Positions 13,376 through 63,003 of a DNA stretch of 64,000 bases are shown piece by piece (the first letter of the stretch is position 1; every line of letters starts with the position of its first letter). The stretch covers positions 1-64,000 of the forward strand of contig NC_089433.1 of assembly GCF_026210795.1 (NCBI RefSeq). The letters are read 5' to 3'. A model generated the notes under the pieces. The model did not search any database and was not told the origin of the DNA. It saw only the letters and a list, made by a program, of their open reading frames with translations. This DNA comes from Rhizophagus irregularis. Its lineage: Eukaryota. The translations under genes and the position numbers were made by a program.

Positions 13376-13672
13376 CTGGCTTAACTGACTGATTCTGGGA
13401 AATATCTTAATTATAGACTATTGCTATTAACTGAAAATTAATATTATTTAGCCAAAGGTGCAATGTATAACTTATTCTTTATTTTTTACGCTAAATAATC
13501 TGTATACATGATCGCCTAGTAAAATTGGTCAAAGGCGCTATACATGAAAATGTATCACCTGCCAAATTTTTCAGATTAGTCCTTAACCCAGATCCCGGTT
13601 AAGATTATGCGCTTTCTGAGGATCAATATAAATCAAAGGTTCTCCCATTCTCTTTTATAATCACAAAAAAGA

Positions 13673-16128
13673 ATGGCATTTCGGAGGTCCCATCCAAGGC
13701 AGAGAAGAACATGTGAAGAATATAAAGCTGAACTGGAGGAGGAGAACTACCATCTTTGTAGTGAATTGCAAGCAGAAGTTGATAGTAACTGCCAAAATGA
13801 AAAGCAGATCAGGGAGCTGGTACGTGAATGTGTCCGTTGTGAACAAGAAATCCAAACTCTTAATGGTGAGATAGAACGTCTTGAGAATGCTTCGAAAGAG
13901 GAGATAGTAGAGCTAAAATCCGAAATTTCCAGCCTAAAAAAGCAACTATATCAAGCTAAGAAGGATATTCGTGATAATGAAAAACATATTTCTAGTATAG
14001 AGAGTCTGTTAGTAGATTCTGAGGAGCAGGTAGAGAAATTGCGATGCCGGATCAGAACCATCTCATCACGAAAAAATTCGCCAGAACGAGGAAATTCTCC
14101 AGACTTGTATAATCCTAATATTAACTTAGAAATGGCTACCATCACGGAGCTAGCAAATGCTATAGATGGTTATCTGAATAATACAACAATAGGTAGAGAA
14201 ATCTTAGCTGATCAAATAAAAAGGGCGACAAGGCAGATTCGCTGAAAAGAGAATAATTGGCATCAGGATTTAGTCCGTGAGCAACGAAGGCGATATGATG
14301 CAGAGGCTGAGCGTGATAATGAAATTATACGAAGGCAAAATGCTGAAGGAGTGGAACAAATGGTTATTGCTGACCTTTATCAGTTGCGGATCAATGCTCA
14401 AAATCAAGTAAATAGAATGTTAGACAATATAACAGGAAAGCGAACCCGTATTGGTATATTGCTACAGGAAAAATTTGCCTTACAATTGCTGTATCAGCGA
14501 AATGCCCATCACTTACAGCGCAGTAGAAAGGATATAGGTCTGTTAGAATTTAATCGTGACAGGCTCTATGAGTGATATGAGAAATGGAAAAATAAGACCC
14601 AAGCAGAGCGACAGAATAATTTAAATTTGCAAGGACAAATTTTGGCGCTTCAGAATAATCCACCTAATCAAGTAAACATGGCAGGAATACCTCATCCATA
14701 TTTTGACTGGGATGATAGTATCCCAGACTTTCTTGCGCAACTTAGACTAGACTTGCAAAATCGGGGAATAGATCCAGCAGGTGCAGGGGGCAATGGAAGA
14801 GCTCAGGCACTAGGACATTTAAGAGCATGTATGAGAGGAAGAACGCCTTAGAATGGTTTGATGAAGAGATTACTACAAAGACAAATTGGGAATTAACTAA
14901 TCTGACTGATGGTACAGGACAAGCCAATTTGGTAGCTGTAAACGGGCGTACAGCTATTCAGATCGGTGCTGATGGATTAAATGAGGCACTCTGACAACCT
15001 GGAAATGCAATAGTAAAATTAAGAGCTGTAGAAGGTCCATGGGACGAGGACTGGCGCATAGCAGGAGGTCGTCCTACTAATCTTCCTGTTAATTTACCGA
15101 ATGCTGGTAATGGAACTACAGTAGTTGTAGCTGGTATTCGATTTGGTCAAGCCGTATGGTGGCTAAAAACTCATTTTCCTACAGTAGAAGAGGAACTTCG
15201 GGATTTGATGTATGGAACAATCAGAAGGGAGACATGACTATAGATGAATTATATAGAAAAATATTACGAATAGGTAGACGAGCCAACTATAGACCTGAAG
15301 AATTACGTAGAAAGTTCTTAGATGCTTTACCACTTTTATGGCTTGAAAAAGCTGAAGATATTGGTGAACATTTGCCATTAGATGAATTAGCTAAAAAGCT
15401 TTATGAGATAGAATTACGCCGAATAGCTAGACATAAAAGAGATAGAATATCTGATCCACTAGTATCTAATCGAACATCTCGGCAAATATATGAACCTTCA
15501 CCTGTTTCAGCCTCACAACAGCATGGAATATCTTTAGAAGATATGCAAAAAGCAATCCAGAATGCATTAGCACAGCAAAAAACTGAATACCAGTCTTTAT
15601 TAGAAAAACAAAAAGCCGATTTCCAATCACAAATGGCCCAGCAAACTAAAAAGATACCTCCACCAGTTCCTCCTAAAAATATGGAACAGCTTCGATACAT
15701 ATGAAAGTGCTAATCCTTTCCCCGATACACTTACTAGGGAAGAAATAATGAGAGTGGTCGCAAAAGCTTATGGGCCACCTCCCCTCCACCGCAAAAAGCC
15801 AGAAAAGTTGCAATCATCTAGAATCGATAGATTAGAGTCAAAAATAGATGAAATTGGTCAAATGACATCTAAGTTTGGTAGGATATCACTTAATGATCAA
15901 TCTCGAAAGCCTTTTTATTGCAGTAATTGCGGACAGGAAGGGCATAAGAAAAACAATTGCCCAAGGTTAAATCCTGTAGCTAAATCCAATTTTACTCAAT
16001 GTTACTATCCTCAACTTCCATCTACACAGCCCCAATATACGCCTCCAGATTCAGATAATGAGGAAGATGGTTATGACAAAGTAGAAAATAGGTGGTATTA
16101 TGCACCGGAAAAAAAAACAGGTAAATGA
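13673..16128 (+). pseudogene. gag: Gag-like polyprotein: long N-terminal coiled coil, retrotransposon capsid, CCHC zinc knuckle
   Basis: Joined across stops (14243, 14573, ~14992) and frameshifts: PYFDWDDSIPDFLAQL...LRACMRGR..LEWF...WLKTHFP...Q(K)GDMTIDELYRKI...RRKFLDAL (major homology region-like), then CSNCGQEGHKKNNC. Confidence 0.8.
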
Positions 16129-16783
16129 TAAGTTGGCCAGTGATACTAATGCAATCTCACCCCTAGAATCTAGCCAACCTGAAACGTACGATCAGCTATT
16201 GTCTAAGCTCTCACCACTGATACGAAAAATGTGCTTGTCTCGAAAGGCTCGGGAGGAGGAATCGAAAGAATCAGATGAGTGGTTGTCATCTTTACAATAT
16301 CTGAATGCTAATATAAATGACTTAACTATTTCTGAATCTTTTTTAGATCCCGGCAGTGAGTTCGGTGGTATAAATGACCCAGCAATTAAGGTGCTTGGAT
16401 GGAAGGCTGATAAACCATCTAATTTTGCCATAAAGGGCAATTCTAAGCATATCACCGATTCATTAGGATGGTATACAGACGTGCCAGTTACTTTGAAGGA
16501 TAAAGAAGATAAGACGGTCACCATTATTGGAAATTTTGTTCGTATTGATAATGGTGAAACAGAACCAATGCTATTTTTTGGTATGTCAAACATTCGGAAG
16601 GTTCAAGGCGTCCCCGAGCCGAATAAAAATCAGTTTCGCATAAAGTTACATGGAAAGGCATATATTATCCCAACCTTTAGCAAGGCTCCGGTAGTCAAGG
16701 ATCTGCCAAAAAAAGATCAGGACCAAGTATCTACCGATTCTTCTAGTCTAACTGGTGAGAAGAACTTAAAAAAAAATGCATAA
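16100..16783 (+). CDS. Retropepsin-like aspartic protease
   Basis: SFLDPGSEFGGIN active-site-like motif, flap-like IKGNS...SLG, and MLFFGMSNI (ILG-like). Overlaps the end of gag at an A9C run. Confidence 0.7.
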   Translation: MHRKKKQVNDKLASDTNAISPLESSQPETYDQLLSKLSPLIRKMCLSRKAREEESKESDEWLSSLQYLNANINDLTISESFLDPGSEFGGINDPAIKVLGWKADKPSNFAIKGNSKHITDSLGWYTDVPVTLKDKEDKTVTIIGNFVRIDNGETEPMLFFGMSNIRKVQGVPEPNKNQFRIKLHGKAYIIPTFSKAPVVKDLPKKDQDQVSTDSSSLTGEKNLKKNA

Positions 16784-17852: not shown

Positions 17853-18910
17853 GTGGTTGAGGGTCCACTAAGTAAACACACCTCCTCAGGTAATCGGCTT
17901 GGTAGCATCCGCGAATCAGAACTTGAGAAAGCATTGCGCGGTAACATCAAAACTGCTTCTGATATTGCTAATGATTATAAAGACCTGCAGGACATATATT
18001 TAGAGCGAGTGAAGGATTTTAATCGTATCTGTTCGGGCTTTAACAATAAGTTTAGTCGGCTGAATACAGCTAATACTGAGCTCAAAGCCAAATATTCTGC
18101 TGAAATCAAATCGCTCAAATCCAATATTAAAATACTAGAGAGAGCAGCAACTTTGGCCCAGAAAACTTCGTCCGCCTGACAAGGTCCAGATTCTTTCTCT
18201 TGAAGTTAAAATACGTGAATTGGAAGGTAAGTTGGAGGACATAGATCTAGAGCGTACATATTATGATTTGGATGTAATGGGAGGAGTGATAGAAAAGCCG
18301 GTAGAAATGCCAAAGTTACCAGATTGGCTTCATGATAATTTAAGAAGTATTGTCTGTAAGTTCGGGCTCAAAGATAAAGTAATGGAACTTGATAAAAAAC
18401 TTGCTAAGGAAGATATATTGGAGGTGTTGCAAAAAGTAATATTAGAAAAAGACCACCACCTTCAAGATGCCAATGCTCGCCTAGAAAAGGCATTATCAGA
18501 GAAAGATTCCCTCCTTCATGAGGCCAATACTCATATAAAAAAACACTTAGCCAGTTTTGAAAAAAAAACCAGTCCCGATTCTTTTGAGACTCTGCAGGTA
18601 ATCAAAGTAACTGATATCTCCAATACTACTTTAGCATTACCCCACTTGCACTCTATTACTGGACCAGAAGCAGGTGAAACTAATTCCTTCTTTTTCAGTA
18701 TGCAATCATCTTCGTAATAGTATTACTAATCATATGCATTTTATGGTGTGTATTCTCTCGTAGAAATTCTTCTTACAATGAAGAAAAAAATATTTCGAAC
18801 TATAAAATACCCTTAAATAGAAATCAGAGTTATGCTTTCCCAATCCGATATACAGAAGAACCAAAAGACAGGACTGCCTCCTATGAAACTTCGTCTTTTG
18901 GATATGGATG
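17853..18910 (+). pseudogene. Coiled-coil protein with predicted C-terminal transmembrane helix
   Basis: ORFs 17853 and 18220 are coiled-coil rich. The -1 frame from 18696 reads QYAIIFVIVLLIICILWCVFSRRN. Confidence 0.5.
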
Positions 18911-19681
18911 AGGTCACTAAACATGAATCATCCCGAAATATTGGACATCCAGCAATGACATGGCCTTTCAGCATGTTGGTCATGGGGTAGAAGTGGTTCA
19001 GGTAAGACTAATTTACTTGCGAATCTTTTCTTCGGTAATAAGGATGAATATGTGCAAAGAGGGAAGAAAGGTGGGTCTCGCTACATCAAATGTGATGATC
19101 TAATTGTTTGTGGGTATCATCCTGATGAACCAAAGTGGGCATATGTGAGATACATATATAATATGATTTCGAAAGACCCAAGAGCACCTTACTATGAGAA
19201 TATTAGTTTCAGTTATATTCCACCCGAAAGAATTCCTAGTACAAGAACATTCTCACCCGAAAGAAGTAAATTATTTATTTTTGAGGATCTGTGCCTCGCT
19301 CCAGATCATATACAAAATCGTATTGGTCAGTTTTTTGGGAATGGGCGTCACCGAAATATTTCATGTATATATATTACGCAAAAGTATCATAAAGTCGATA
19401 CATTCAAACGTGAAAACTCGACTCATTTAGTATTATTTAACTCTGGTAGCAGTATCCAAGACGTGTCTAAGATTGTTGGACGATATATTGATGATGTAAA
19501 GGGTGCATCTATGGTTATTAATAGTTACCTTCGAAAAGGCGAGTTTGTTGTATTTGATCTCACTAGGCCAGAAGATGATCCTCTTGCAATCCGCCTAAGG
19601 TTTGACACTCCACTGAACTTACAAAAGGAGATAGAGGCTAGGCAGAAGCGCAAGAAAAAGAGTGCCTCAGCTAATGAGTAG
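18832..19681 (+). pseudogene. A32/FtsK-HerA-like DNA packaging ATPase (one frameshift just before Walker A)
   Basis: WPFSMLV.GRSGSGKTNLLANL (Walker A), KLFIFEDL (Walker B), and GRHRNISCIYITQKY...KREN (A32-family arginine/glutamine motifs). Extra base in ATGGGGTAGA near 18981. Confidence 0.88.
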
Positions 19682-19731: not shown

Positions 19732-20862
19732 ATGGGGGAACCAGTTATTTATATCGATCCTCAAAAAGCTCATGATTTAGACCAGCATCTTGCTTTGCAA
19801 AAAATATATTATCGTCCTGAAGGTCTTTATCAAAATGTTAAGGGATTATGGGATGCTTGTAAAAAAGCCGGCTACAGCTTTCCATTTATTGATATAAAAA
19901 AATGGCTTGAGGGCCAAGCAATGTATCAAATTTTTCGTCCTTCGCCAAAGCATATACCTTATGCCAGTTACTCTAAAATCACAAAGCCAAATACTGTGCA
20001 CCAATGTGATTTAATCGAAATACCATATGATGAAGATGTGGATACAAATTTACTAGATGATGGTCCAATATATTACTATGTACTATTGGTTATAGACTGC
20101 GCGACTAGATATAAAGATTTCATTTTTTTAACATCAAAGAGCAGTGAGGAAGTTGCGGAAGCATTTAAGAGTATATATAATAATCCCGATAAGCCTCTCA
20201 ACTGGCCTCGAAAATTGCAATGTGATAAGGGCACTGAGTTTATGGGATACGTAACTTTATTAATGGATGAACATGGCGTTGAGATCCGAAGAATTATAGC
20301 ACGTTTCAGGCATACAAGCTTGGCTATGGTCGACCGTTATGCTGGATTATTCGAATTAAGAGTTTTTAAAAATCAGTATTCAATAGAGTTTCTCCTGCCT
20401 ACTGGTAAGCGCTGTAGAGAATGTGAGCGGTTTGCAAGAAAAATTGTTGATAATATGAATGATAGCCCAACTCGATTGATTGGGATGAGTCCTAATGACG
20501 CCACAAAACTTGAGCAGATATATTCCAAACCATCAGTAAAATATAATCGCCCAATAGGTGTTGATGAACCACAACTACCAAAGGGTACTACTATCCAATT
20601 TTTGCTCGCTCCTGGAGAGTGGGAAAACGATCCTTTCGAACGACGCAGAATAACAGATCCGATATGGTCTCCCAGCCTGCATAAGATTCGGAAAATTGTT
20701 GTTGGAAAGAATCCTCCAATGCCTATTTTATATTATTTAGATGAATCAGGACCCCAACGCCCTTTCGTGAGAGAACAATTGATGCATATTAAGGAAGAGC
20801 CCATGTTACCTCCTAGGTGGATATTGGGAGATAACCGAATGCGTACAAGGCGCTCCTTATAA
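19732..20862 (+). CDS. Polinton/Maverick-type retroviral-like (rve) integrase
   Basis: LQKIYYRPEG...IKKWL..QAMYQI, HQCDL, LLVIDCATRY, LQCDKGTEF, AMVDRY, and C-terminal RRITDPIWS...LYYL...PFVREQL. Intact 376-aa ORF. Confidence 0.9.
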   Translation: MGEPVIYIDPQKAHDLDQHLALQKIYYRPEGLYQNVKGLWDACKKAGYSFPFIDIKKWLEGQAMYQIFRPSPKHIPYASYSKITKPNTVHQCDLIEIPYDEDVDTNLLDDGPIYYYVLLVIDCATRYKDFIFLTSKSSEEVAEAFKSIYNNPDKPLNWPRKLQCDKGTEFMGYVTLLMDEHGVEIRRIIARFRHTSLAMVDRYAGLFELRVFKNQYSIEFLLPTGKRCRECERFARKIVDNMNDSPTRLIGMSPNDATKLEQIYSKPSVKYNRPIGVDEPQLPKGTTIQFLLAPGEWENDPFERRRITDPIWSPSLHKIRKIVVGKNPPMPILYYLDESGPQRPFVREQLMHIKEEPMLPPRWILGDNRMRTRRSL

Positions 20863-21328
20863 AAGTTTCTAAGTCTACTACACAGTAAGGGATTGTAATA
20901 AGGATTACTCCTTCCCGATAGCATAACGCTTTCTTTTTCCAATCACGCCAGATTTGTGCGTCTAGATTCATCTGACCTTGTGGGTGAAAAAAAGGGACGA
21001 TTTGGTAATGTTGATTGCCACTATATTCAAAGGCCAAGCCTAACTCTTCATTGTATCCATCTAGATGTAATCCCTCCAAGAATTTAGGCTTTCGGGGTGG
21101 AAATTTTTTATGTAATAAATCCTCAAATATATACCGGCACGTTCTTTCTGGTATATTAGGACAAATATTGCACCATCTATAATTCTGTTTCATATTTTTA
21201 TATGGCGCCTCCCATTGATGGCCTTTTTTACATGCCCATAAATATGTATTAGAACTAACTTTAGCTAAGCATCTTCCTTCACGCTTTTGGGCATATGCCA
21301 AAGCTTTAGTGTTAATATCATCTTGCAT
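20813..21328 (-). CDS. Zinc-ribbon + Vsr/PD-(D/E)XK-type endonuclease
   Basis: WACKKGHQW...WCNIC zinc ribbon, LHLDGYNEELGLAFEYSGNQHY, and RDWKKKALC..EGVILITIPY. Confidence 0.8.
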   Translation of the reverse strand: MQDDINTKALAYAQKREGRCLAKVSSNTYLWACKKGHQWEAPYKNMKQNYRWCNICPNIPERTCRYIFEDLLHKKFPPRKPKFLEGLHLDGYNEELGLAFEYSGNQHYQIVPFFHPQGQMNLDAQIWRDWKKKALCYREGVILITIPYCVVDLETFIRSALYAFGYLPIST

Positions 21329-21690
21329 TTTATAGGTACAATAGAATATCACATACAGAAATTTGCGGTAGTGATCATTAGCTCTAGACTAGTTTGGTCA
21401 GAAGAATCGATCTGGATATATGCAAATCCAGGTGCAAGTTTGAAAGTAAAATTAAACTTGGCTACTACTATTGCATAAGTAAAAAAATAAATATCGCCAA
21501 TATTCTTAGCAGGAAGTGGCAATTTCGGCTAAGAGTACTTGACAATATAGCTCAACAATCTTGTCTATATATTCGCTCTTTTTATGTATTATTGATATTA
21601 TCAAGTAGATCGATATCTTTTAACAATTTTTTCGTTTGTTTATAAAGATTTTGCCATTGTACATGAAATTTGTTTCGTAAGACAGAAGAC

Positions 21691-22050
21691 TTAATAAGAC
21701 AGGGGAAGAATACTTGTAAGATTATTTATATGGGATTTGATTACTGCATGAACATTTGCAATTTCTTCTCCTGCTGTAATCCAATCATAACGCGGAGTAT
21801 AGAGAACTGTATAAATATGGGTTATTTCTTGTTCACTACAGTCTAGCCGATATTTGATAAAATCAAGATCTTCACGAAATTCCCTTTCTTTTTGCTTTAA
21901 AATAACTCGAAATGCTTCAGAATTCCATTGATGATTCACAATAAGACAGGAATATAGTATATCCTTAATCTTGAGATTACTAAAAATTAATTCAAGCAGT
22001 TCAGAACAAATAAATGGGCTAGGCCCAGCATTTTTTTGCGCAAGAAGCAT
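21691..22050 (-). CDS. F-box protein
   Basis: ICSELLELIFSNLKIKDILYSCLIVNHQWNSEA. Confidence 0.7.
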   Translation of the reverse strand: MLLAQKNAGPSPFICSELLELIFSNLKIKDILYSCLIVNHQWNSEAFRVILKQKEREFREDLDFIKYRLDCSEQEITHIYTVLYTPRYDWITAGEEIANVHAVIKSHINNLTSILPLSY

Positions 22051-22079
22051 GGTGTATATGCAAGAAAGCAGTATAAAAT

Positions 22080-23442
22080 AACAGAGAAACTAGCAAAGTT
22101 CAAAATAAAAATTCTATATAATTTTGAGCGAATATGCTTATAGCGCGGGCAAAATACTGGGTCAGTAGTAGTACCCCAAAGTAATCAATATAATAATGCC
22201 TAAAAGTAATCGATGTAGTAGTACTCCAAAGTATCCCAGAGTAGAAACTATACAGGAACAAGAGCTAGAAGGCGAAAACAAGCAAGTTTATGGTAACCCA
22301 CTCAAGCAGAATTATATATAGGAAAGAAAAGAGAAATTTCACTTGAGTGGCCTACCACCGATAGGCAGGAAAGAGACTGGAAAGGCAGAAAGGTTCAGGA
22401 GAATACACGAAAAAAGATATGAAAGCGATATAGCCTGAACCAATTCGACACTTCGCATGAGCCTCACACAGCAATCAGAAAGGGCATATAAAGGGCGGGA
22501 TTGCAAGAATGGGCATGAAACACCTTGCACTTCGTGCCTCATCCTCGGCAATCAAAAGGGTTATGGAAGGCAGGATTGCACATCTAGGTCACCAATTCGG
22601 CACTTCGTGCTTCATTCCTGGCAATCAAAAAGTGAGGAAATGGATTGTGAAATGTCTTCGGCAAATAGATGGATTGCAAATTCGGCACTTTGTGCTCATC
22701 CGAAACAATCGAAATGGGCATCTCCAAATCTCCGACCAACTGATACACCAGATCGAATCCTGAATATCCCTTGAAAGTTGCAAGAAGGTTGCGAGAAAGT
22801 GACGGGGAAGTGCCTGGAACTGGCGAGGAACTGGATCACATGATTAACGCAGTAGGCGCAGTAGAATTTCGTTAATTTCGGCCAGCACTATTCCATATTT
22901 TTTTTGCATAAATTTCAGGATGCAATATCTCAGCATCCAGGCATCCGATTCATGCGATCTTAGCATCATTGGAAAGCTCTCAACGCCCTCATCAGAACGA
23001 GCTTAAAACCGCACGAATCCAATCACAGGAAGCCAAGATATTCCGCCCTAAAGATTAGGTCAAAAATATAGCATAATGCCGGCCAAAATCTGATTAGCAA
23101 ATTTACTGCGCCACCCGATCACAACATGATTTTTAGCAATCAAGGCCGGCCAAGCATTTTGGCCACAAAAAGGCTACAGAGCAATGAAAACAAGCAAATA
23201 GTTACAAGGCAGTAAAAAGATAGCAGAACAATAAAATCAAGCAAATATCTATAAAGCAACCAAACAGTCACAGACCAGTGAAAACAGATGGATAGCAATA
23301 AAGCATTAGAAAGGGCATAGACATGTAAAAATAAGTAAGTAGGGATCAATATCTATAAGTAGGCATCACTATAGTGTAAGTAGATAGATTAAGTAGACAT
23401 CACTATATATATAGTGATGTCTACTTAATCTATCTACTTACT
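22080..23442. repeat. Putative terminal (TIR-like) non-coding region of the element
   Basis: No convincing ORF and strong A/purine skew. Three degenerate GCACTT(C/T)GTGC..CAT...CAATC repeats at 22525-22715. Terminal palindrome. Confidence 0.5.
23376..23441. repeat. Perfect 66-bp palindrome
   Basis: GTAAGTAGATAGATTAAGTAGACATCACTATAT|ATATAGTGATGTCTACTTAATCTATCTACTTAC. Confidence 0.97.
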
Positions 23443-23803
23443 ATTTTTTTTAAACAGACTTCTTTTTTTTGTGTAGCAGTAAAAAACTTTTATTTTTTTT
23501 AGGAATTTCATTTTGACTTTTAAGGTTTTCAACTTCGTCAAAATTTTTTTTAGGTTTACCTTTTGCATTTTCATATAAGGAAATATGTAAAATAAAACAA
23601 AAAGAACGAAATATGAAGCATGAATATCTATCTATTATTATAATAAAAATATAAATAATGTGTGAAATTACTATATTTGAAGAGAAATTTCATGTAAAAT
23701 GAATATCAAATTATCCCTTATGGTAAAAATTATCTTATAAAAATCTTCATTATATTTATAAAAAAGTTCATTATAAAAAAAATTCATTACAAAAAGAGTT
23801 ATC

Positions 23804-26502
23804 TATATATATTGTGCCTCAGATTGATTCTATCTGGCAGTCCAAACTGAAAATTAAGATTGGTCTAGTCTGGATTGATACTTTAACTCAGACTGAAATA
23901 TTTAGTTTGGTTCAGTTTGATCCAGAATTATAAATCTAACTTGGGCTGAATTAAACAGGTTAAAACTAGACTGAACTGAAAATTTACCAAAAATTTATCT
24001 GTATTCTAATTCTATAATTCTGACTTGATAATAATCTTTCTGATATGTATAGTTTTATTTTAAGCCTATATTTATTTTGTGTAATATTAATTCATAAAGA
24101 GTTAAAGACGCATAATTTTCTTATATAGTATATATATTATACAAAGCAAATATAAACTTAAATTGAAGCTATACATGTCAGGTAGATTGCTATAGAGCCA
24201 AAATTATGAAATTAGAATACAGTTATAATTTTGGTAAAAATTTTAATTTTGATCATGTGATATTATAATAGCCAATTAAAATTTCAAATTTTTTATTATA
24301 GGACTGAACCAGACTAAATTAAATATAAACTGGTCTGATTCAGTCCTGAATTATCTTTTTAACATAATTCAGATCGGGCTGAAATGAAGCAATTTTTTTT
24401 AGTCTGGTACTAGGTTACTCCTTAACCTGGACAAATGTGAACCATTTAGAGCTTTATTCTTGCCTTAGCTGATAGTTAATGCTATACTTTTCGTCAAAAT
24501 GACAAAATACTAATTAAATTTATTTTGACAAATGTTATGTATTTTAACAGACGTAATTAATTTATAGTAATTTTATAATAACATATGTGCCGATTTTTGG
24601 AATTAGTCTAAATTAAGATTTTTATAAAAATTTAATATTTTAGTAAGATTAACATTACACAAATCTAAATTAAATATGTGTTACATATTTACGTGACTCA
24701 GATTTAATAAAAAATAAAAAAAATTTTTTTAATCAATATTCAAAAATAACGGTAATAACCACTTCTTTTTCCCCATCACTCCCATAACTTTTCCATCATT
24801 TTTCTATTCACTTTTATTAAATATGACAAAAAAGTTTATAAGCAAATATAGCAGTTATTTTTAAGTGGTAAGTAAAAGAAAAAACTTAATATTTTATATA
24901 CATAGATAAGACATAGTTTTTCATAATTTTTAACTTTAATTTATTGTTTTTTCTTTGTAAAAAATACATGCAAATAAAAAATAATTATGATGTAAAATAG
25001 TTGTAAAATGAATAATAAGATATTTTTTTTTCAAAATAACTAATTATATATTTGTTTTTTATCTTTTAAAATTATTTTATTAGATTTATTCTACTAAAAT
25101 CCTTAAATGGCAAATAAAATCTTTTAAATAAAGTAAAAGAATTTGGGATTTTCTTATGAAAGCATTTTTTGGTAAGAAATAAAATTTTCAGATCAGACTT
25201 TATACAGGTGACAAAATCGTGCATTATTATTCCTGGAGATATGCTAACATCATCATTTTATATTTATTTGAAAGTTGAGAATTTGCTCTATCGTAAGAGT
25301 CAACGATCAGGAAAATTGGATCACTGGATGAGGTGTAATTAACGATCAAAGTCAAATCAAATTTAAAAATTGAAAATAAATATATTAGACGTAATTATTC
25401 ACAATCCAGTGATTCAATTCATTCAATTTTAGGCTTATTAGATAGACCTCAATTTTCTCTTTCAAATGAATATAATTTCATTCATGTAACTTGCATCTAC
25501 AGGTATTTAATAAATTTTTTTATATCAGATTTTATCAAATTTATAAAATTTTATATTAATAATATAATTGATGATTCCTAAACATCTACATATATTAAAC
25601 GAATTATTTTAAATTTATTTTAAAGATAAAAGTTGGCATCACCTTAGGGAGCAAATCATTCAAATTGAATCACTATATGTGAAGTAATTAATGATCAAAT
25701 TTAGATAAAATTCAATAATATACTGAACGTGATTACTGAACAACTAGTGATTCGATTCACTTGATTTTAGATTCATTAGATAGATCTCGATTTTTTCTTT
25801 CAAATGAATGTAAATTTATTTGTATAGCTTATTTCTACGAAGAATTATCAATGATTTTGTCATGAGAGTTATATTTGATCTTTTAAATTTTAATGATATC
25901 TTATATTAAAAAAAAATTAAAAATTATATAATTAATTAGTTTTTTTTGCATTATCTGGTATAAATTTATTATTCTTATATAAATGATAATTTATATTTGC
26001 TTTAATAAAATTATTTTTGTGTAAAAAATTAGATTCCAAGGATCAGCCCATATGAATAGTGAATTAGTCTGTTCACCGAAATATGACATAATTAATTAGC
26101 GAAGAAGTATAGTTAACACATCTCAAATTAAAATTGTTACCTGGCACATCTCACTTTACAATAAAAAATTGATTATAATTAAACATTAAATTTTCTAATC
26201 TAATGTACATTTAATTATTAATAAAACTTATTTGCTGTATTTTCAAATATTCAATCCAAAAATTTTAGATCAATTGGATTCATGCTTACTTTTGAAATCT
26301 TCATTTAAAAATATATTTATAATGCAAATTTTTTCAAATAAATATTTACATTGTATATTTAATAGGAATTAAAATTGTGGTTTATTTATAGTAGACTAAA
26401 TTTATACAATTCAAATGAGATGTGTCAGGTGACGATTTTATTAATTTAAGATATGTCAGCTGTCAGCTGAGGCAAAAATCGATCTGAGGTACAACATATA
26501 TA
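23804..26502. mobile_element. Old TIR element/MITE with nested insertions
   Basis: TATATATATTGTGCCTCAGATTGATT matches the reverse complement of AATCGATCTGAGGTACAACATATATA. The inner arm (cacatctc...acctggcacatctc vs gagatgtgtcaggt) is split by later insertions. Confidence 0.55.
24483..26111. mobile_element. Non-autonomous DNA transposon (1.6 kb) with TATACTT termini
   Basis: Ends TATACTTTTCG...GAAGAAGTATA. Imperfect 8-bp TSD GTTAATGC/GTTAACAC. Both ends match the 155-bp element at 48766-48920. Confidence 0.75.
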
Positions 26503-49034: not shown

Positions 49035-49396
49035 AGAACTATTCTTTTCATATAACTCAAATATTACAATACAATTCTTAACTATCAAAACTATTTGTAA
49101 AACTGACTACTCCTTCAACTTGGTAAAATCCTAATACTATTTATAATAAAATAAAAAAATAAGAATATTTAATAAAATAAATAAACTAAATATAATAAAT
49201 AAATAAAATAAAATAAATATAACAAATAAAATTAATAAAATAAATAAATCAAATTTATCAGATTATCAAATAAATCAAGAAAATCAAGAAAATTGAAAAA
49301 ATCAAGAGATCTGCAAAATGATCAAATCAATAAAAAAAATAAAATCAAATAAAAAAAAAGACATAAAAATTACTGCACTACATTTCTACTTTAATA
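49035..49396 (-). repeat. Diverged partial LTR copy in inverted orientation
   Basis: The reverse complement aligns with 49401-49980 (e.g. CTTTTCATATAACTC...TACAATACAATTCTTAACTA). Confidence 0.7.
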
Positions 49397-49400
49397 ATAC

Positions 49401-50215
49401 TGTTAAAATAGAAATGTGGCGCAGTAATTTTATGTAGATCAATTTTGTAGATCATTTCATAAATCCCTTGATTTTTTCGATTTTCTTGATTTTCTTGATT
49501 TATTTGATAAATCTGATAAATCTGATAAATTTGATAAATTTGATATATTTGATTGAAATAATTTATTTATCGCACGTGCGATGCAAATTTTTATGTTTAT
49601 CATTGCCATTTTAAGGGGGGTGGCGATGTATAAGCAGGTTGATCAACATAAATAATTTACAAAAAAGGAAAGTGGCGATGCATCGCACGTGCGATGAATA
49701 AATTTACTCTATTTGATTTATTTATTTTATTTTATTTATTTATTTTATTTTATTTATTTTATTTGTTTGATTTATTTATTTTATTTTATTTATTTATTTT
49801 ATTTTATTTATTTATTTTATTTTATTTATTTATTATATTTGATTTATTTATTTTATCAAATATTCTTGATTTTTACTTATTATAAATAGTGATAGGATTT
49901 TACTAAGTAGAAGGGGGAGGTCAGTCAGTTAGTTAAGAATTGTATTGTAGTTTTCGAGTTATATGAAAAGAGTATTATTCCCAGTAGTATAATTCAAGAT
50001 AGTTAATTTCGCAACCAAGAGATTATCTATATTTTTCGTCGTATCTAAAATCTTACATTATTTTAATAAAAACCTATTTTCTTTAACTGAACATCCAACG
50101 TTATTTCACATGATTATTTGTGATCAACTTAAGACTCTCCTATTAAGTTAAACTCCAGTTAACCTGTTAAAGCGTTAAAGTTTTTCAGTCGGCTTTAATT
50201 GTTGACAGGATAACA
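49401..50215 (+). repeat. 5' LTR of Ty3/gypsy element
   Basis: Begins TGTTA and ends TAACA, and is followed after 3 nt by a TGG primer-binding site. Confidence 0.75.
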
Positions 50216-53239: not shown

Positions 53240-53254
53240 GATGGGTCAAATATG

Positions 53255-54425
53255 TAAAAAAAAATGCCGAAACGTTTTTTTTTGTATTATTATTAAGAAA
53301 AAACGTTTCGGCATTTTTTCATATAAAATTATTAGAAAAAAATGCCGAAACGTTTTTTTTGCATGATTATTAAGAAAAAATGTTTCGGCGTTTTTTCATA
53401 TAAAATTTAAAAAAAAACGCCAAAACGTTTTTTTTTAATATTACTTATTAAGAAAAAACATTTCGGCATTTTTTCATGTAAATTATATTTAAAAAAACGC
53501 CGAAAACATTTTTTTTTTGTATTAGTTGTTAAGAAAAAACGTTTCAGCGTTTTTTCATATAAAATTATTAAAAAAAATGCCGAAACATTTTTTTTTATAT
53601 TAATTATTATAGAAAAAACGTTTCGGCGTTTTTTCATATAAAATTATTAGAAAAAAATGCGAAACGTTTTTTTTTTGTATTAGTTGTTAAGAAAAAACGT
53701 TTCGGCATTTTTTCATATAAAATTATTAAAAAATAAACGCCGAAACGTTTTTTTTATATTAATTATTATAGAAAAAACGTTTCGGCGTTTTTTCATATAA
53801 AATTATTAAAAAAAAACGCTGAAACATTTTTTTTATATTAATTATTATAGAAAAAACGTTTCGGCGTTTTTTCATATAAAATTATTAGAAAAAAATGCGA
53901 AACGTTTTTTTTTGTATTAGTTGTTAAGAAAAAACGTTTCGGCATTTTTTCATATAAAATTATTAAAAAATAAACGCCGAAACGTTTTTTTTTATATTAA
54001 TTATTATAGAAAAAACGTTTCGGCGTTTTTTCATATAAAATTATTAGAAAAAAAATGCTGAAACGTTTTTTTTTGTATTAATTATTATAGAAAAAACGTT
54101 TCAGCATTTTTTCATATAAAATTATTAAAAAAAAATGCAGAAACGTTTTTTTTTTGCATTATTATTAAGAAAAAATGTTTCGGCGTTTTTTCATGTAAAT
54201 TATATTAAAAAAATGCTGAAAACGTTTTTTTTTTGTATTAGTTGTTAAGAAAAAACGTTTCAGCGTTTTTTCATATAAAATTATAAAAAAAAACGTTAAA
54301 ACGTTTTTTTTTTAGTATTAATTATTAAGAAAAAACGTTTCGGCGTTTTTTTATATAATAAATATTAAAAAAACGCCGAAACGTTACTTTTTTAACAGAA
54401 AAATGTCAAGTTTGGCGTTTTTTGT
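53255..54425. repeat. Tandem array of ~78-bp units built from inverted GCCGAAACGTTTT / AAAACGTTTCGGC motifs
   Basis: Directly visible repetition. Confidence 0.9.
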
Positions 54426-57400
54426 TTTTTTTTAACTAAAAAATGTCGGGTTGACATTTTCAATTAAAAACCCCGGGGTTTTTTAATTTTTTAATCATTT
54501 TTGATATACGGGTCAAACGGGTCAAACGGGTCAAACAGGTCGGGTCAGGTAAGACGGGTTACCCGACCCGACCCGACCCGATTTTTTTTTGTCGGGTTGG
54601 GTAAGACGGATTACCTGACCTGACCCGACCCGTTCAGAACACTAATCAAGAGTTACAGCGAACTGAACCTGAAAAACAAGGAGCTTAGACAATTACTTCT
54701 TTTGAACAATTCCAATTTATGGTGAAACATAATGAATTAACCCCAATATTAGTTAATTATTATACTGATATTCTTAACCAATTGATTAGAGAAGAACCAG
54801 CATATCTTAATCAAAAAGAAAGAGCTGAAGAAGCTTTGTATGGAGAAGCGATTGTATATGGACAACCTGTTAATGTCTTAATAGATTCAGGGGCTGTAGG
54901 TTGTATTATTTCTAAAAGATTCCTAGATAAAGTCAATAAAGGAATTGAATTACCTACGAATATTAAGATCATTGATGTAACAGGACAAAAATCATCACCG
55001 TTAGGGATGGTTCAGCAAGTCCCAGTGCAAATGAGGGATATTAAAGTCTATGTCAATATGATAGTCACAAACTCAGCTGAATATAATGTTCTGCTTGGTA
55101 ACGAATGGTTGAAGAAAGTTAATGCAAATATCGATTATGGACAGAATACCATCACCATTAAATATGAAGGAATTCAACAACAAATTCCTATCACATGTTC
55201 TCAAAAATTGGACCCAACAAAATATACAGTCATTGACCCAGTAGATAAACTAGAATTAAAAGATGAGTTAGAAGACACCATAGCCGTTCCATTTTACAAG
55301 GCAGAAATAACCAAAAGTACTTTTCAAATCAATGATCGAGAATATCACCCAGGGTATCTGGAATATATTAAGCAACAAAGTCACAATAGTACTGGCGTAA
55401 TTAATAGTAAAATACCAGGAAAATGCCTATGTAAAACCTTAGGAGATCAAGAAGTTTGTGATAATTGTCAAATAGTTCAAGAAGATTGGAATATTTATCA
55501 CGTGATGCAAGAATCAGAAAGTCCGAATGTATCTAATATTCAATTAGAACCAGAAAAAGTTGTTCCGATTGGAGAATTAGAGAAAAGTCAATATCAATCA
55601 CTCCATCAATTACTAGAAAAAAATAAAGACTTCAGCTATTCGCTAAATCATTGCAAGAGTTAAAACAAACTCCAGAAGGGGAACATATTATTATCACTGA
55701 AGAAGTGCCACCTATCAAAAAGCGAGCTTATAGGACAGCATCAAAGGAAAATGAATTTATTGAGAATGAAATTAATGACATGTTAGAACAAGGGCTAATA
55801 GAACCATCGACTAGTCCATGGTCATTTCCAGTAGTAGTAGTGAAAAAGAAGAATGGAAAACTTAGGTTTTGCGTTAATTATAAACCTCTTAACGATATTA
55901 CAAAAAAGGATAATTACCCACTTCCAAGGATTGATGAATTATTAGATTCTTTACAAGATGCACAATGGTTCACCACTTTAGATTTAGCGTCAGGGTATTG
56001 GCAAATAAAAGTAAGGGCAGAAGACCAGGAAAAAACAGCTTTTATCACAAAATTTGGAACCTACGAATTCAAAGTTATGCCTTTTGGACTTTGCAATACA
56101 CCTGCGACATTTCGGCGAACTATAGATAAAGTTTTACATGGAATAAAGGAAAAGTTCGTTTTAGTTTATCTTGACGATGTCATTATATATTCAAAAACTT
56201 TTAAAGATCATATCCAACATTTGGAAGAAGTTCTAAATAGAATTTGTAAGGTGAATTTAAGATTAAAAGCAGAGAAATGTCATTTTGCAGCAGCTGAATT
56301 TCAATTTTTAGGATATGTTGTGGAAAAAGAAGGTGTTAAACCTGATCCAGAAAAAGTCGATAAAATGGTTAATTACCCAGAGCCTCAAAATATTAGAGAA
56401 TTATGTGGAGTCCTAGGATTATTCTCTTATTATTGACACTTTATCAAAGATTTTGCTAAAGTTGCTGATCCAATGTACAAGTTATTAAAAAAAGATGCAC
56501 CCTATGAATGGACGAATTTACAACAAAAGGCATTCGAGAATTTAAGAGATAAATTAACAATGGCACCGATCGTACAATACCCAGATTTTTCAAAACCTTT
56601 CTTCTTATATACCGATGCTTCAATTATAGGGTTAGGCGCAGTACTTGCACAAAAAACTGATGATCAAGAGCATGTGATTGCCTATGCTAGTCGAACTTTA
56701 ATACCGGCGGAAAAGAATTATGCCATCACAGAATTGGAATGCCTTGCAATTGTATGGGCAGTTAAATATTTTCGACATTATCTTTATGGAAGTAAATTCA
56801 CCATCATCACCGACCATGCAGCGCTCAAGTGGTTGTTGAATTCAACAACAGAGAATAATAATAAAAGATTGGAAAGATGAAAGATTGCCTTATCGGAATA
56901 TAAATATGACATTGTATATCAGAAAGGAACTAAACATACGAATGCTGATGCATTATCTCGTCTCGACTCAACCTCAACTAATAATCACACCAATCCTTTA
57001 ACCTCACATAACGATCATGGATGAACAACCATATAAAGAATTAATTTTATTTTTAACAACTCTCACTTTTATGGATGGTATAACTGATAAACGGAAAACC
57101 CAAATTCGGAAAAACTCAACCCAATATATTTATCAAAACAATATTTTATTTAGGAAAACAAAGGATGGTATAAGAAAAGTAATTCTACGCGAACAAGTAG
57201 AACCTATTTTATATCACTTTCATACAGATATGAGCGGTACTCATTTAGGAATAGATGCTATAATTGGAAAAATCAAAGATCGATATTATTGGCCACAATT
57301 GGGAGAAGATGTAAAAGAATATATAAGAACTTGTGATATTTGTCAAAGAAGAGGACCTACTAATCGTTGAGAGGAACTGATACCAATACCAGTTAAGGGA

Positions 57401-57846: not shown

Positions 57847-58257
57847 CTCTCTATACTAGAAATATGTTTTTCATTATCACGAATATCCTTCTTAGTTCTT
57901 AGCTTGATATAGTTGCTTTTTTAGGCTGGAAATTTCAGATTTTAGCTCTACTATCTTCTCTTTCGAAGCATTCTCAAGACGTTCTATCTCACCATTAAGA
58001 GTTCAGATTTCTTGTTCACAACGGACACATTCACGTTCCAGCGCCCTGATCTGCTTTTCATTTTGGCAGTTACTATCAACTTCTGCTTGCAATTCACTAC
58101 GAAGATGATAGTTCTCTTCTTCCAGCTCAGCTTTATGTTCTTCATATGTTCTTCTCTGCCTTGGGTGAGATCTGCGAAATGACATTCTTTTTTCATAATT
58201 ATAAAAGAGAATGGGAGAACCTTATTGATCCTCAGAAAGCGCATAATCTTGACCAGG
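57847..58257 (-). repeat. Inverted second copy of the 5' part of the zone-1 gag gene and its leader
   Basis: The reverse complement matches about 13590-14004 (MSFRRSHPRQRRTYEEHKAELEEENYHL vs MAFRRSHPRQRRTCEEYKAELEEENYHL). Confidence 0.95.
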
Positions 58258-58304
58258 ATATTACTTTGCAGAAATACAAGGAAAAAAGTATCCCCAACCA
58301 AATT

Positions 58305-60905: not shown

Positions 60906-63003
60906 TAGAGCTCCGAATTTGACCTGACGGATTGGGTGACCTGACGGGTTGACCCGAAAAATTCAGGTCGGGTAGCAGATTTAATGACCCGACCTCAGGT
61001 CAGGTCAGTCAGAGTCGGGTACCCGACCTGACCCATTGACCTGACATATTTCGGTCAAAAATAAGACGTTTCAGCATTTTATATATATAAAAAAATGCCA
61101 AACTGACCTGAATCCGACGTTTTTTCATTAAAAATAATTACAAAAATGTCTTTTTTTATTAAAAATATCAGGTTCGATCAAAGAAACAAAAAAAAAATGT
61201 TTCTTTAATTAAAAAATGTCAGGTTTGATGTTTTTTCATTAAAAGAAACAAAAAAAATGTTTCTTTAATTAAAAAACGTCGGGTTTGACATTTTTTCATT
61301 AAAAGAAACAAAAAAAATGTTTCTTTAATTAAAAAACATCGGGTTTGACATTTTTTCATTAAAAGAAACAAAAAAAATGTTTCTTTAATTAAAAAACATC
61401 GGGTTTGACGTTTTTTCATTAAAAGAAACAAAAAAATGTTTCTTTAATTAAAAAACGTCGGATTTGACATTTTTTCATTGAAAGAAACAAAAAAAATGTT
61501 TCTTTAATTAAAAAACGTCGGGTTTGACATTTTTTCATTAAAAGAAACAAAAAAATGTTTCTTTAATTAAAAAACGTCGGGTTTGACATTTTTTCATTAA
61601 AAGAAACAAAAAAAATGTTTCTTTAATTAAAAAACGTCGGGTTTGACGTTTTTTCATTAAAAGAAACAAAAAAAAATGTTTCTTTAATTAAAAAACGTCA
61701 GGTTTGACGTTTTTTCATTAAAAGAAACAAAAAAAATGTTTCTTTAATTAAAAAACATCGGGTTTGACGTTTTTTCATTAAAAGAAACAAAAAAAATGTT
61801 TCTTTAATTAAAAAACGTCGGGTTTGACGTTTTTTCATTAAAAGAAACAAAAAAATGTTTCTTTAATTAAAAAACGTCGGGTTTGACGATTTTTCATTAA
61901 AAGAAACAAAAAAAAATGTTTCTTAAATTAAAAACGTCGGGTTTGACATTTTTTCATTAAAAGAAACAAAAAAAATGTTTCTTTAATAAAAAAACGTCGG
62001 GTTTGACGTTTTTTCATTAAAAGAAACAAAAAAAAGTTTCTTTAATTAAAAAACGTCGGGTTTGACGTTTTTTCATTAAAAGAAACAAAAAAAAAATGTT
62101 TCTTTATTAAAAAACGTCAGGTTTAACGTTTTTTCATTAAAAGAAACAAAAAAAATGTTTCTTAAATTAAAAACGTCGGGTTTGACATTTTTTTATTAAA
62201 AGAAATAAAAAAAATGTTTCTTTAATTAAAAAACGTCGGGTTTGACGTTTTTTTCATTAAAAGAAACAAAAAAAATGTTTCTTTAATTAAAAAACGTCGG
62301 GTTTGACGTTTTTTTCATTAAAAGAAATAAAAAAAAATGTTTCTTTAATTAAAAAACGTCGGGTTTGACGTTTTTTCATTAAAAGAAATAAAAAAAATGT
62401 TTCTTTAATTAAAAAACGTCGGGTTTGACGTTTTTTCATTAAAAGAAACAAAAAAAATGTTTCTTTAATTAAAAAACGTCGGGTTTGACATTTTTTTCAT
62501 TAAAAGAAACAAAAAAAAATGTTTCTTTAATTAAAAAACGTCGGGTTTGACGTTTTTTTCATTAAAAGAAATAAAAAAAATGTTTCTTTAATTAAAAAAC
62601 GTCAGGTTTGACGTTTTTTCATTAAAAGAAACAAAAGAAACAAAAGAAAACGTTTCTTTAATTAAAAAATGTCGAACCTGACGTTTTTTATTAAAAGAAA
62701 CAAAAGAAAATGTTTCTTTAATTAAAAAACCTCGAACCTGACGTTTTTTATTAAAAGAAACAAAAAAAAATTGTTTCTTTAATTTAAAAATGTCAGGTCC
62801 GACGTTTTTCATTAGAAGAAACAAAGTTTTGGCGTAATAAAAAGTGCCGAAACGTTTTTTTGATCTAAAATATATCGGGTCAATGGGTCGGGTCGGATAT
62901 CCGAACTGACCCGTGATATTCGGGTCGGGTCATCAAATTCATGACTTGCCTTGGGTCGAGTCAAGTCAATTACCCGACCTGACCCGACACATTCGGAGCT
63001 CTA
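60906..63003. mobile_element. hAT-like non-autonomous element
   Basis: TIR TAGAGCTCCGAAT/ATTCGGAGCTCTA and subterminal GACCCG/CGGGTC repeats. No 8-bp TSD visible. Confidence 0.8.
61110..62825. repeat. Tandem array of ~59-60-bp units (roughly 27 copies)
   Basis: Unit AAAAGAAACAAAAAAAATGTTTCTTTAATTAAAAAACGTCGGGTTTGACGTTTTTTCATT. Confidence 0.95.

Follow-up and report, generated by a model that had tools for sequence, protein, structure and literature searches.

The window analysed here is a stretch of 64,000 nucleotides of Rhizophagus irregularis (contig NC_089433.1, positions 1 to 64,000), and positions 1–23442 are the probable extent within it of one mobile element, with its continuity inferred from base composition. 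The GC content is 0.371 for 1–23442 and 0.262 for 23442–50000, and since a value of about 0.37 persists to the first base of the window, the left end of the element must lie outside it. The forward strand carries a gene for an A32-like packaging ATPase (18832–19681; PF04665, E = 4e-09, above the cut-off), which is frameshifted near Walker A and with which a homologue aligns in two frames, and an open frame for an rve integrase (19732–20862; PF00665, E = 4e-07, slightly below the curated cut-off) with 56 homologues. In the integrase alignment D92 and D164 are nearly invariant, and at the third acidic position the window and its closest relatives, Gigaspora proteins among them, have D and distant relatives have E. 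All named homologues of both proteins belong to Glomeromycota (Rhizophagus, Gigaspora, Diversispora, Cetraspora and others), which points to an arbuscular mycorrhizal fungus as the likely host. An initial annotation of this DNA had described the ORFs as decayed, a description that suits the frameshifted ATPase but not the integrase, whose frame is open. On the reverse strand there follow a homing-type endonuclease ORF (20813–21388; PHROG 559, E = 1.4e-12, with matches to further nuclease families) and, closest to the end, an F-box-like cargo ORF (21691–22089; a weak match to PF12937, E = 0.0045). Further cargo upstream of the terminus includes RING, LRR, SAM and Crinkler-like ORFs, and two orphan ORFs belong to unnamed Mucoromycota clusters.

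Protein scans of 1–23.5 kb covered 78 of the 130 frames of at least 55 aa, the other 52 appearing to overlap longer frames. Among the scanned frames of this interval there was no match to pPolB; to a helicase, a D5 primase-helicase, PolA or a primase-polymerase; to a tyrosine recombinase or protelomerase; or to an HUH Rep/NS1 nickase. Nor did the same frames yield a Pfam or PHROG match to a double jelly-roll capsid protein, a penton or a cysteine protease, in libraries that divergent capsids can escape. Searches of viral contigs with the integrase and the ATPase, each as a single sequence and as an alignment, confirmed no relatives. On the evidence of the rve integrase, the A32 ATPase and the right tip described below, the element can be assigned provisionally to the Maverick/Polinton-like class, and we infer from continuity within this window that the terminus and the integrase are parts of one element. 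It resembles Mavericks and Polintons in these two genes, in a short-repeat AG..CT tip, in a GC content above that of the flank and in the presence of several copies; it is unlike them in that 23.4 kb, a length already near the 24.6-kb maximum given for intact vertebrate Mavericks in the accessible part of PMC8097293, gave no match to a pPolB, a capsid or an adenoviral protease.

As far as the accessible parts of these sources go, Mavericks have expanded in Glomerales (PMC11952901) and recently so in R. irregularis (PMC8647823), fungal A32 ATPases cluster with Maverick-Polintons (10.64898/2026.06.19.733378), and D5-like helicase homologues are abundant in R. irregularis (PMC11296320). Within the accessible text of papers on fungal Mavericks palindromes are not mentioned for these elements, fungi are not treated in the corresponding part of PMC4028283, and the open literature searched, Repbase, subscription papers and supplements aside, does not describe how the Mavericks of Glomeromycota end. 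A literature search by name for a Glomus element gave only unrelated papers among the matches listed.

Several other features of the window were noted. A broken gag-like block at 13661–16783 has a CCHC knuckle and a retropepsin-like ORF, the motif being recognised by eye with no library match, and the protease-like ORF had no match in a PDB sequence search. In the database protein P0093 the block is joined to the ATPase, and it may therefore belong to the family as a standing component, as opposed to being a nested retrotransposon. A relic of the family lies at 57847–58274, directly after a Ty3/Gypsy pol, and consists of a 91% match to 13592–14004 (inverted) and a piece of the integrase start. 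Two tandem arrays at 53245–54443 and 61116–62831 have units of about 78 and 60 bp, each unit being partly self-complementary in itself.

Between the genes and the terminus extends a non-coding subterminal region (22232–23257) with 73-bp repeats, a hairpin at 22291–22357 (23-nt arms) and an imperfect inverted repeat at 22855–23112. The ends of the inverted repeat are like those of a host inverted-repeat family at 49040–49974 and 32394, and it is possibly an old MITE within the element. The hairpin has equivalents at 460–528 and 627–694 of L013, a second copy of the end from a soil metagenome, where the stem letters are different yet still paired (complementarity of 91–92%, against 78% in the window), a sign that further structure may be conserved in the non-coding part of the end. 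At 2–211 of L013, on the reverse strand, another ORF occupies the F-box slot; its first six codons are identical to those of 21691–22089 and the remainder differs, as if cargo had been swapped behind a fixed start in this end-proximal ORF.

The terminus itself is composed of a conserved subterminal block (23258–23333), common to subfamilies that diverge further upstream, a degenerate extra arm (23334–23375, forward strand) and a perfect, spacer-less palindrome of 66 bp (23376–23441) with 33-bp arms and its centre between 23408 and 23409. The extra arm, whose position ahead of the palindrome agrees with the earlier description, holds two further TAAGTAG-GCAT units (at 23336 and 23356) of an 18-bp repeat (repeat family D5), and the units at the terminus number three direct and one inverted. 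The outer arm (23409–23442, reverse strand) is probably the TIR, or integrase end. Read inward from 23442 to 23434 this right end is AGTAAGTAG, as the initial annotation had it, with the amendment that the perfect palindrome stops short of the terminal T (23442), which does not pair with the inner arm; this last base of the tip is also present in element-free copies of the flank and only likely belongs to the element. The right end thus has a 5'-AG(T)..(A)CT-3' repeat tip, and another copy has the tip AGTAG. Leftward in the window there is no second copy of the terminal motif, which occurs once in the 64 kb.

A palindrome of this length stands apart from its surroundings: the runner-up within the 64-kb window measures 20 bp (10-bp arms), the longest arm in each of 20 base shuffles of the window was 8–12, and DNA folding of 23320–23450 gives −31.9 kcal/mol (z of −10), with none of 200 shuffles folding as well. 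It also lies where the initial annotation had placed it, at the composition boundary, the single best GC change point within 20–27 kb being 23403 (0.378 to 0.215), with 23291–23442 within 2 log units. A search of Rfam gave 14 matches, all under the gathering scores and 11 of them to miRNA precursor families, which were taken as generic hairpin matches.

Read support was sought in public sequencing runs, 20 of the 24 listed, from seven studies, containing 22000–24000. Six of them were aligned to the window, all as assembled contigs (X1, X3, X9, X11, X15 and X18); X1 is possibly the source sample of the window itself, and X15 and X18 come from other studies. If the contig graph was built with k = 31, a value taken from how the run finder describes its index, the window alone predicts a contig ending at 23405, a 48-nt piece at 23376–23423 and a contig starting at 23412. 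All three are present in X1 with 0 differences, X15 has a contig starting at 23412 (1 difference) and X18 one starting at 23413 (0 differences), so that the right junction is seen in three of the six runs, from three studies, and both junctions in X1; the window's own junction is absent among the matches listed for X3, X9 and X11. Since the contigs break where a real 66-bp palindrome with unlike sides must break a k = 31 graph, the palindrome is no assembly slip, and its perfection and lack of a spacer, both claimed at the outset, are read-supported. A 34-nt contig of X1 (record 5, 23392–23425) is symmetric about the centre, with 17 bases on each side and 2 differences. The length expected of a perfect palindrome is 32 nt, and the longer contig may reflect an asymmetric core present in two orientations.

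The DNA beyond the palindrome (23443–23500, forward strand) is an AT-rich repeat. In four of four runs there are contigs that match this flank from 23441–23444 onward and have loose ends of non-element letters before it, at least two of them with 0 differences over 59–60 bases. Because the flank also exists without the element, it is a host repeat and the junction lies at 23440–23442, an interval that can be narrowed no further since the element-free flanks share the T at 23442 and one of them also the C at 23441. The palindrome therefore adjoins the insertion site of the element, and the claim that it marks an element terminus is upheld.

Other copies leave the terminal arm for at least three further flanks at nearby positions, namely after 23438 (X3 and X11), after 23440 (X18) and at about 23442–23451 (X1, record 7). 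The copy in X3 and X11 has the same flank in both runs and ends in CTACT at 23438, one 4-nt AGTA unit before the end of the copy in the window; its centre is crossed in a single contig with five differences, and this copy is thus imperfect. Record 7 of X1 matches 23417–23451 with four differences and joins about 25 bases of common arm to another flank and to another interior, the letters of which were not found anywhere in the window. This second end type shares just two outer units, and, judged from that one contig, it may be the left end of the family, that is, a short TIR of about 25 bp without the palindrome. At the other side of the terminus, loose contig ends occur at 23255 in X1, X3, X9 and X11, and the same end is common to subfamilies that differ upstream of this position. 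Every inner arm encountered, whether in L013 or among the contigs of four of four runs, was joined to the same upstream block over 120–170 bp. The palindrome thus recurs in other copies of the element, and this constant attachment, together with its single occurrence in the window, indicates that it is not an independent MITE.

L013 is one of 14 loci from a motif scan of metagenomes and the sole other copy inspected letter by letter; the other 13 loci were chance matches with no BLAST match to the window. It is colinear with 22232–23441 over about 1.3 kb at 75–78% identity, and the identity climbs at the end, to 71/75 in the subterminal block, 39/42 in the extra arm and 62/66 in the palindrome, or about 94% over the last 184 bp. 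The four differences within the palindrome make up two mirrored pairs, both complementary, from A-T in the window to G-C in L013 at position 12 and from T-A to A-T at the centre. By a hand count, four changes fall as two mirror pairs in 528 of 720,720 placements; a shuffle control on the pair count reached the observed value in 124 of 500 cases, a control that is uninformative with two rows. As an assembler can mirror an arm after crossing the centre, only the central pair is secure from L013. The A-T of the window at position 12 is read-supported (X1, record 4), and since the other units have G there, the change is likely derived and carried by both arms.

Scans of other collections for the end motif gave candidates that were set aside. 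Two viral-contig scans produced one match each (L015 and L025) with no BLAST match to the window, a phage collection produced none, and of nine loci from a scan of prokaryote genomes, six (L017, L018, L020, L021, L023 and L024) were unrelated, with an empty tblastx against the window. These six are dispersed, AT-rich, small intergenic REP-like hairpins in GC-rich Verrucomicrobia/Victivallales genome bins and have an 18-base word in common with the arm.

Some copies appear to carry the fold further than the window does. Past its outer arm L013 runs on to the end of the contig with a sequence exactly complementary to the extra arm, giving 60-bp arms and entering no flank, and this is the product expected from fold-back extension; taken alone, the continuation could be an assembler effect. 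A copy consisting of the arm and a flank forces a break at the arm base, so contigs of common variants in which that break is missing hint at longer fold-backs. Of these, X18 23367–23423 (6 differences) ends 15 bases past the centre, as a fold would, whereas X11 23259–23419 and X1 23255–23421 end 11 and 13 bases past it instead of the 15 of a pure fold-back and are also compatible with other termini whose perfect core has arms of just 19 or 17 bp. The depth figure of the X18 variant is 1035 and that of the window's junction 213, depth being no measure of copy number. Whether long fold-back forms exist in the common variants is, on this evidence, about evenly balanced.

The element, Maverick/Polinton-like in kind, ends in a palindrome that is real and shared across its family. 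Hairpin self-priming at this end, one of the readings suggested in the initial annotation, is plausible by analogy with published palindrome-ended elements. Our best explanation, to which we give an even chance, is a family-wide terminal hairpin that is renewed by copying from arm to arm and whose outer arm is also the integrase end. The outer arm would double as the TIR through which the integrase links the element to host DNA. Once a strand has been excised or displaced, its 3' end would fold back onto the inner arm, lose the last base, which is unpaired, and then prime synthesis; extension would yield either a duplex capped by a hairpin or a dimer joined tail to tail. The AGTA repeat would later serve as the site of a new end, made when the integrase cuts there or when protein priming jumps back by 4 nt. 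In each cycle one arm would be re-copied from the other, and such re-copying would keep the palindrome perfect while the genes decay and would also explain the mirrored changes and the fold-back contigs. For the copy in the window, polymerase and capsid functions would have to be provided in trans or be encoded further left in the element. A scheme that mixes hairpin and protein priming is possible, since a jump back would likewise account for a terminal base without a partner and for an end that is shorter by 4 nt. An extension of the hairpin reading, which we consider unlikely, is that these elements are asymmetric 'clothespin' replicons, with a plain TIR of about 25 bp at one end and at the other a self-priming hairpin that when opened is the 66-bp palindrome; they would multiply without a protein-primed polymerase of their own, through hairpin-capped or tail-to-tail dimers common enough to leave long fold-back contigs.

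Against the hairpin, the AG..CT ends of Maverick type point to protein priming, which needs no hairpin. In adenovirus, protein priming proceeds with a jump back, and in a corresponding account the AGTAAGTAG tip would be a jump-back origin, served by a pPolB that acts in trans or is encoded further left in the element, and the palindrome a head-to-head pair in an array of TAAGTAG-GCAT binding units for the integrase or an initiator, kept by selection. The three direct and one inverted 18-bp units, the ends that differ by one AGTA unit and the second end type with just two outer units all fit this account. So do, in the accessible portions of the two papers, the end motifs of vertebrate Mavericks (PMC8097293) and the listing of Rhizophagus in a tree of pPolB (PMC4409740). 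The tips of vertebrate Mavericks are (AGT)2 or (AG)3, and these elements have 6-bp TSDs and TIRs of 46–1447 bp, as given in that part of PMC8097293, compared with a common end of seemingly only about 25 bp here. Slide-back priming, which the initial annotation had mentioned for the likeness of the tip to Polinton ends, draws modest support from the copy that leaves the arm one 4-nt unit earlier (two of four runs) and from the comparable vertebrate tips, and is weakened by the absence of a pPolB match among the scanned frames of the part of the element present. Binding sites, moreover, do not require a spacer-less, base-perfect dyad of 66 bp, and the centre has gone from TA to AT with its pairing kept, so that we regard a purely protein-primed end as rather unlikely. 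That the palindrome has no function at all is more doubtful still: an ancestral template switch would have copied an array like that of the left end backwards and so made a usable right TIR, the palindrome being afterwards homogenised by occasional arm-to-arm repair and the longer fold-backs being by-products. The inner and extra arms do resemble tandem copies of the terminal repeat, the second end type seems to lack the palindrome, and accidental annealing is offered as an alternative in the available text of 10.64898/2026.07.28.741278. What makes such a scar improbable is that the last 184 bp are conserved between the window and L013 well above the 75–78% of the wider region, and that the end is common to subfamilies differing upstream of 23255.

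A telomere-resolution site, also raised in the initial annotation, would combine a perfect, spacer-less palindrome and an AT-rich centre with fold-back contigs, all of which are found here, and protelomerases turn palindromic dimer junctions into hairpins (PMC3558466, in the part available). A protelomerase or tyrosine recombinase would act on replicative dimers, cutting the palindrome at its centre and leaving covalently closed hairpin ends. The scanned frames gave no match to either enzyme, the central dinucleotide varies, and the integrated end at +30 to +34 would still need explaining, all of which makes such a site very improbable. Equally little weight falls on an independent palindromic MITE at the boundary or an artefact of assembly or amplification. 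The 66–67 bp unit does look like two fused TIRs, and library hairpins can generate fold-back chimeras; for the window's copy these possibilities are largely refuted by the one occurrence in 64 kb, by the upstream sequence shared by L013 and the contigs of all four runs, and by the right junction in X1, X15 and X18 with both junctions in X1. Two further ideas were rejected. Two TIRs meeting at a circle junction would put the tips at the centre, where CACTATA/TATAGTG stands instead, and a retroviral CA-3' end, for which the fold-back form of L013 reads TTACA, does not fit the window or the X3/X11 copy, which have T after AC.

The terminal hairpin that we favour has precedents. Terminal palindromes of parvoviruses, including AAV, and of poxvirus telomeres are able to self-prime, yield tail-to-tail dimers and have arms that are copied from one another. 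The present end is like them in having a terminal palindrome that could self-prime and arms that would be re-copied; it is unlike them in that the scanned frames hold no HUH Rep/NS1 match, the element is integrated and has a DDE-type integrase, and the hairpin is simple and perfect rather than T-shaped. The same viral hairpins are cited as precedent in the accessible part of a 2026 preprint on Halocafeteria seosinensis (10.64898/2026.07.28.741278), in which palindromes are described within TIRs beside TSDs in four virophage subtypes (1, 2, 5 and 6) and PLV subtype 4. They occur there preferentially in elements without pPolB, and a model of hairpin priming is proposed (10.64898/2026.07.28.741278). 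As far as that text goes, the likeness extends to palindrome size (52 nt in subtype 5), the position within the TIR and adjoining the target site, and rve-integrase elements mostly without pPolB, whereas the Halocafeteria elements have a protist host, intact capsid modules and palindromes at the TIR extremities. The element of the window, for its part, has a fungal host, a perfect palindrome of 66 bp with an extra arm, a second end type seemingly without a palindrome, and no identified capsid or replicase. A terminal palindrome beside the target site has thus already been described in protists, and what differs here is the fungal host, the perfect 66-bp palindrome with its extra arm and the apparent second end type.

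By this analogy the element likely works like the palindrome-ended elements of protists, with hints of asymmetry between its ends and of fold-back dimers. For the replication of Polinton-like elements without pPolB, the model of hairpin priming comes so far, in the literature searched, from one protist and one 2026 preprint. That model becomes directly testable with a conserved, mirrored palindrome at the end of an element family that has recently expanded in culturable mycorrhizal fungi, for which there are chromosome-level genomes and long reads. If the element does carry a hairpin at one end and a plain TIR at the other, this would be a replication layout not found for this group in the literature searched, and it would also be a source of large inverted duplications in repeat-rich fungal genomes.
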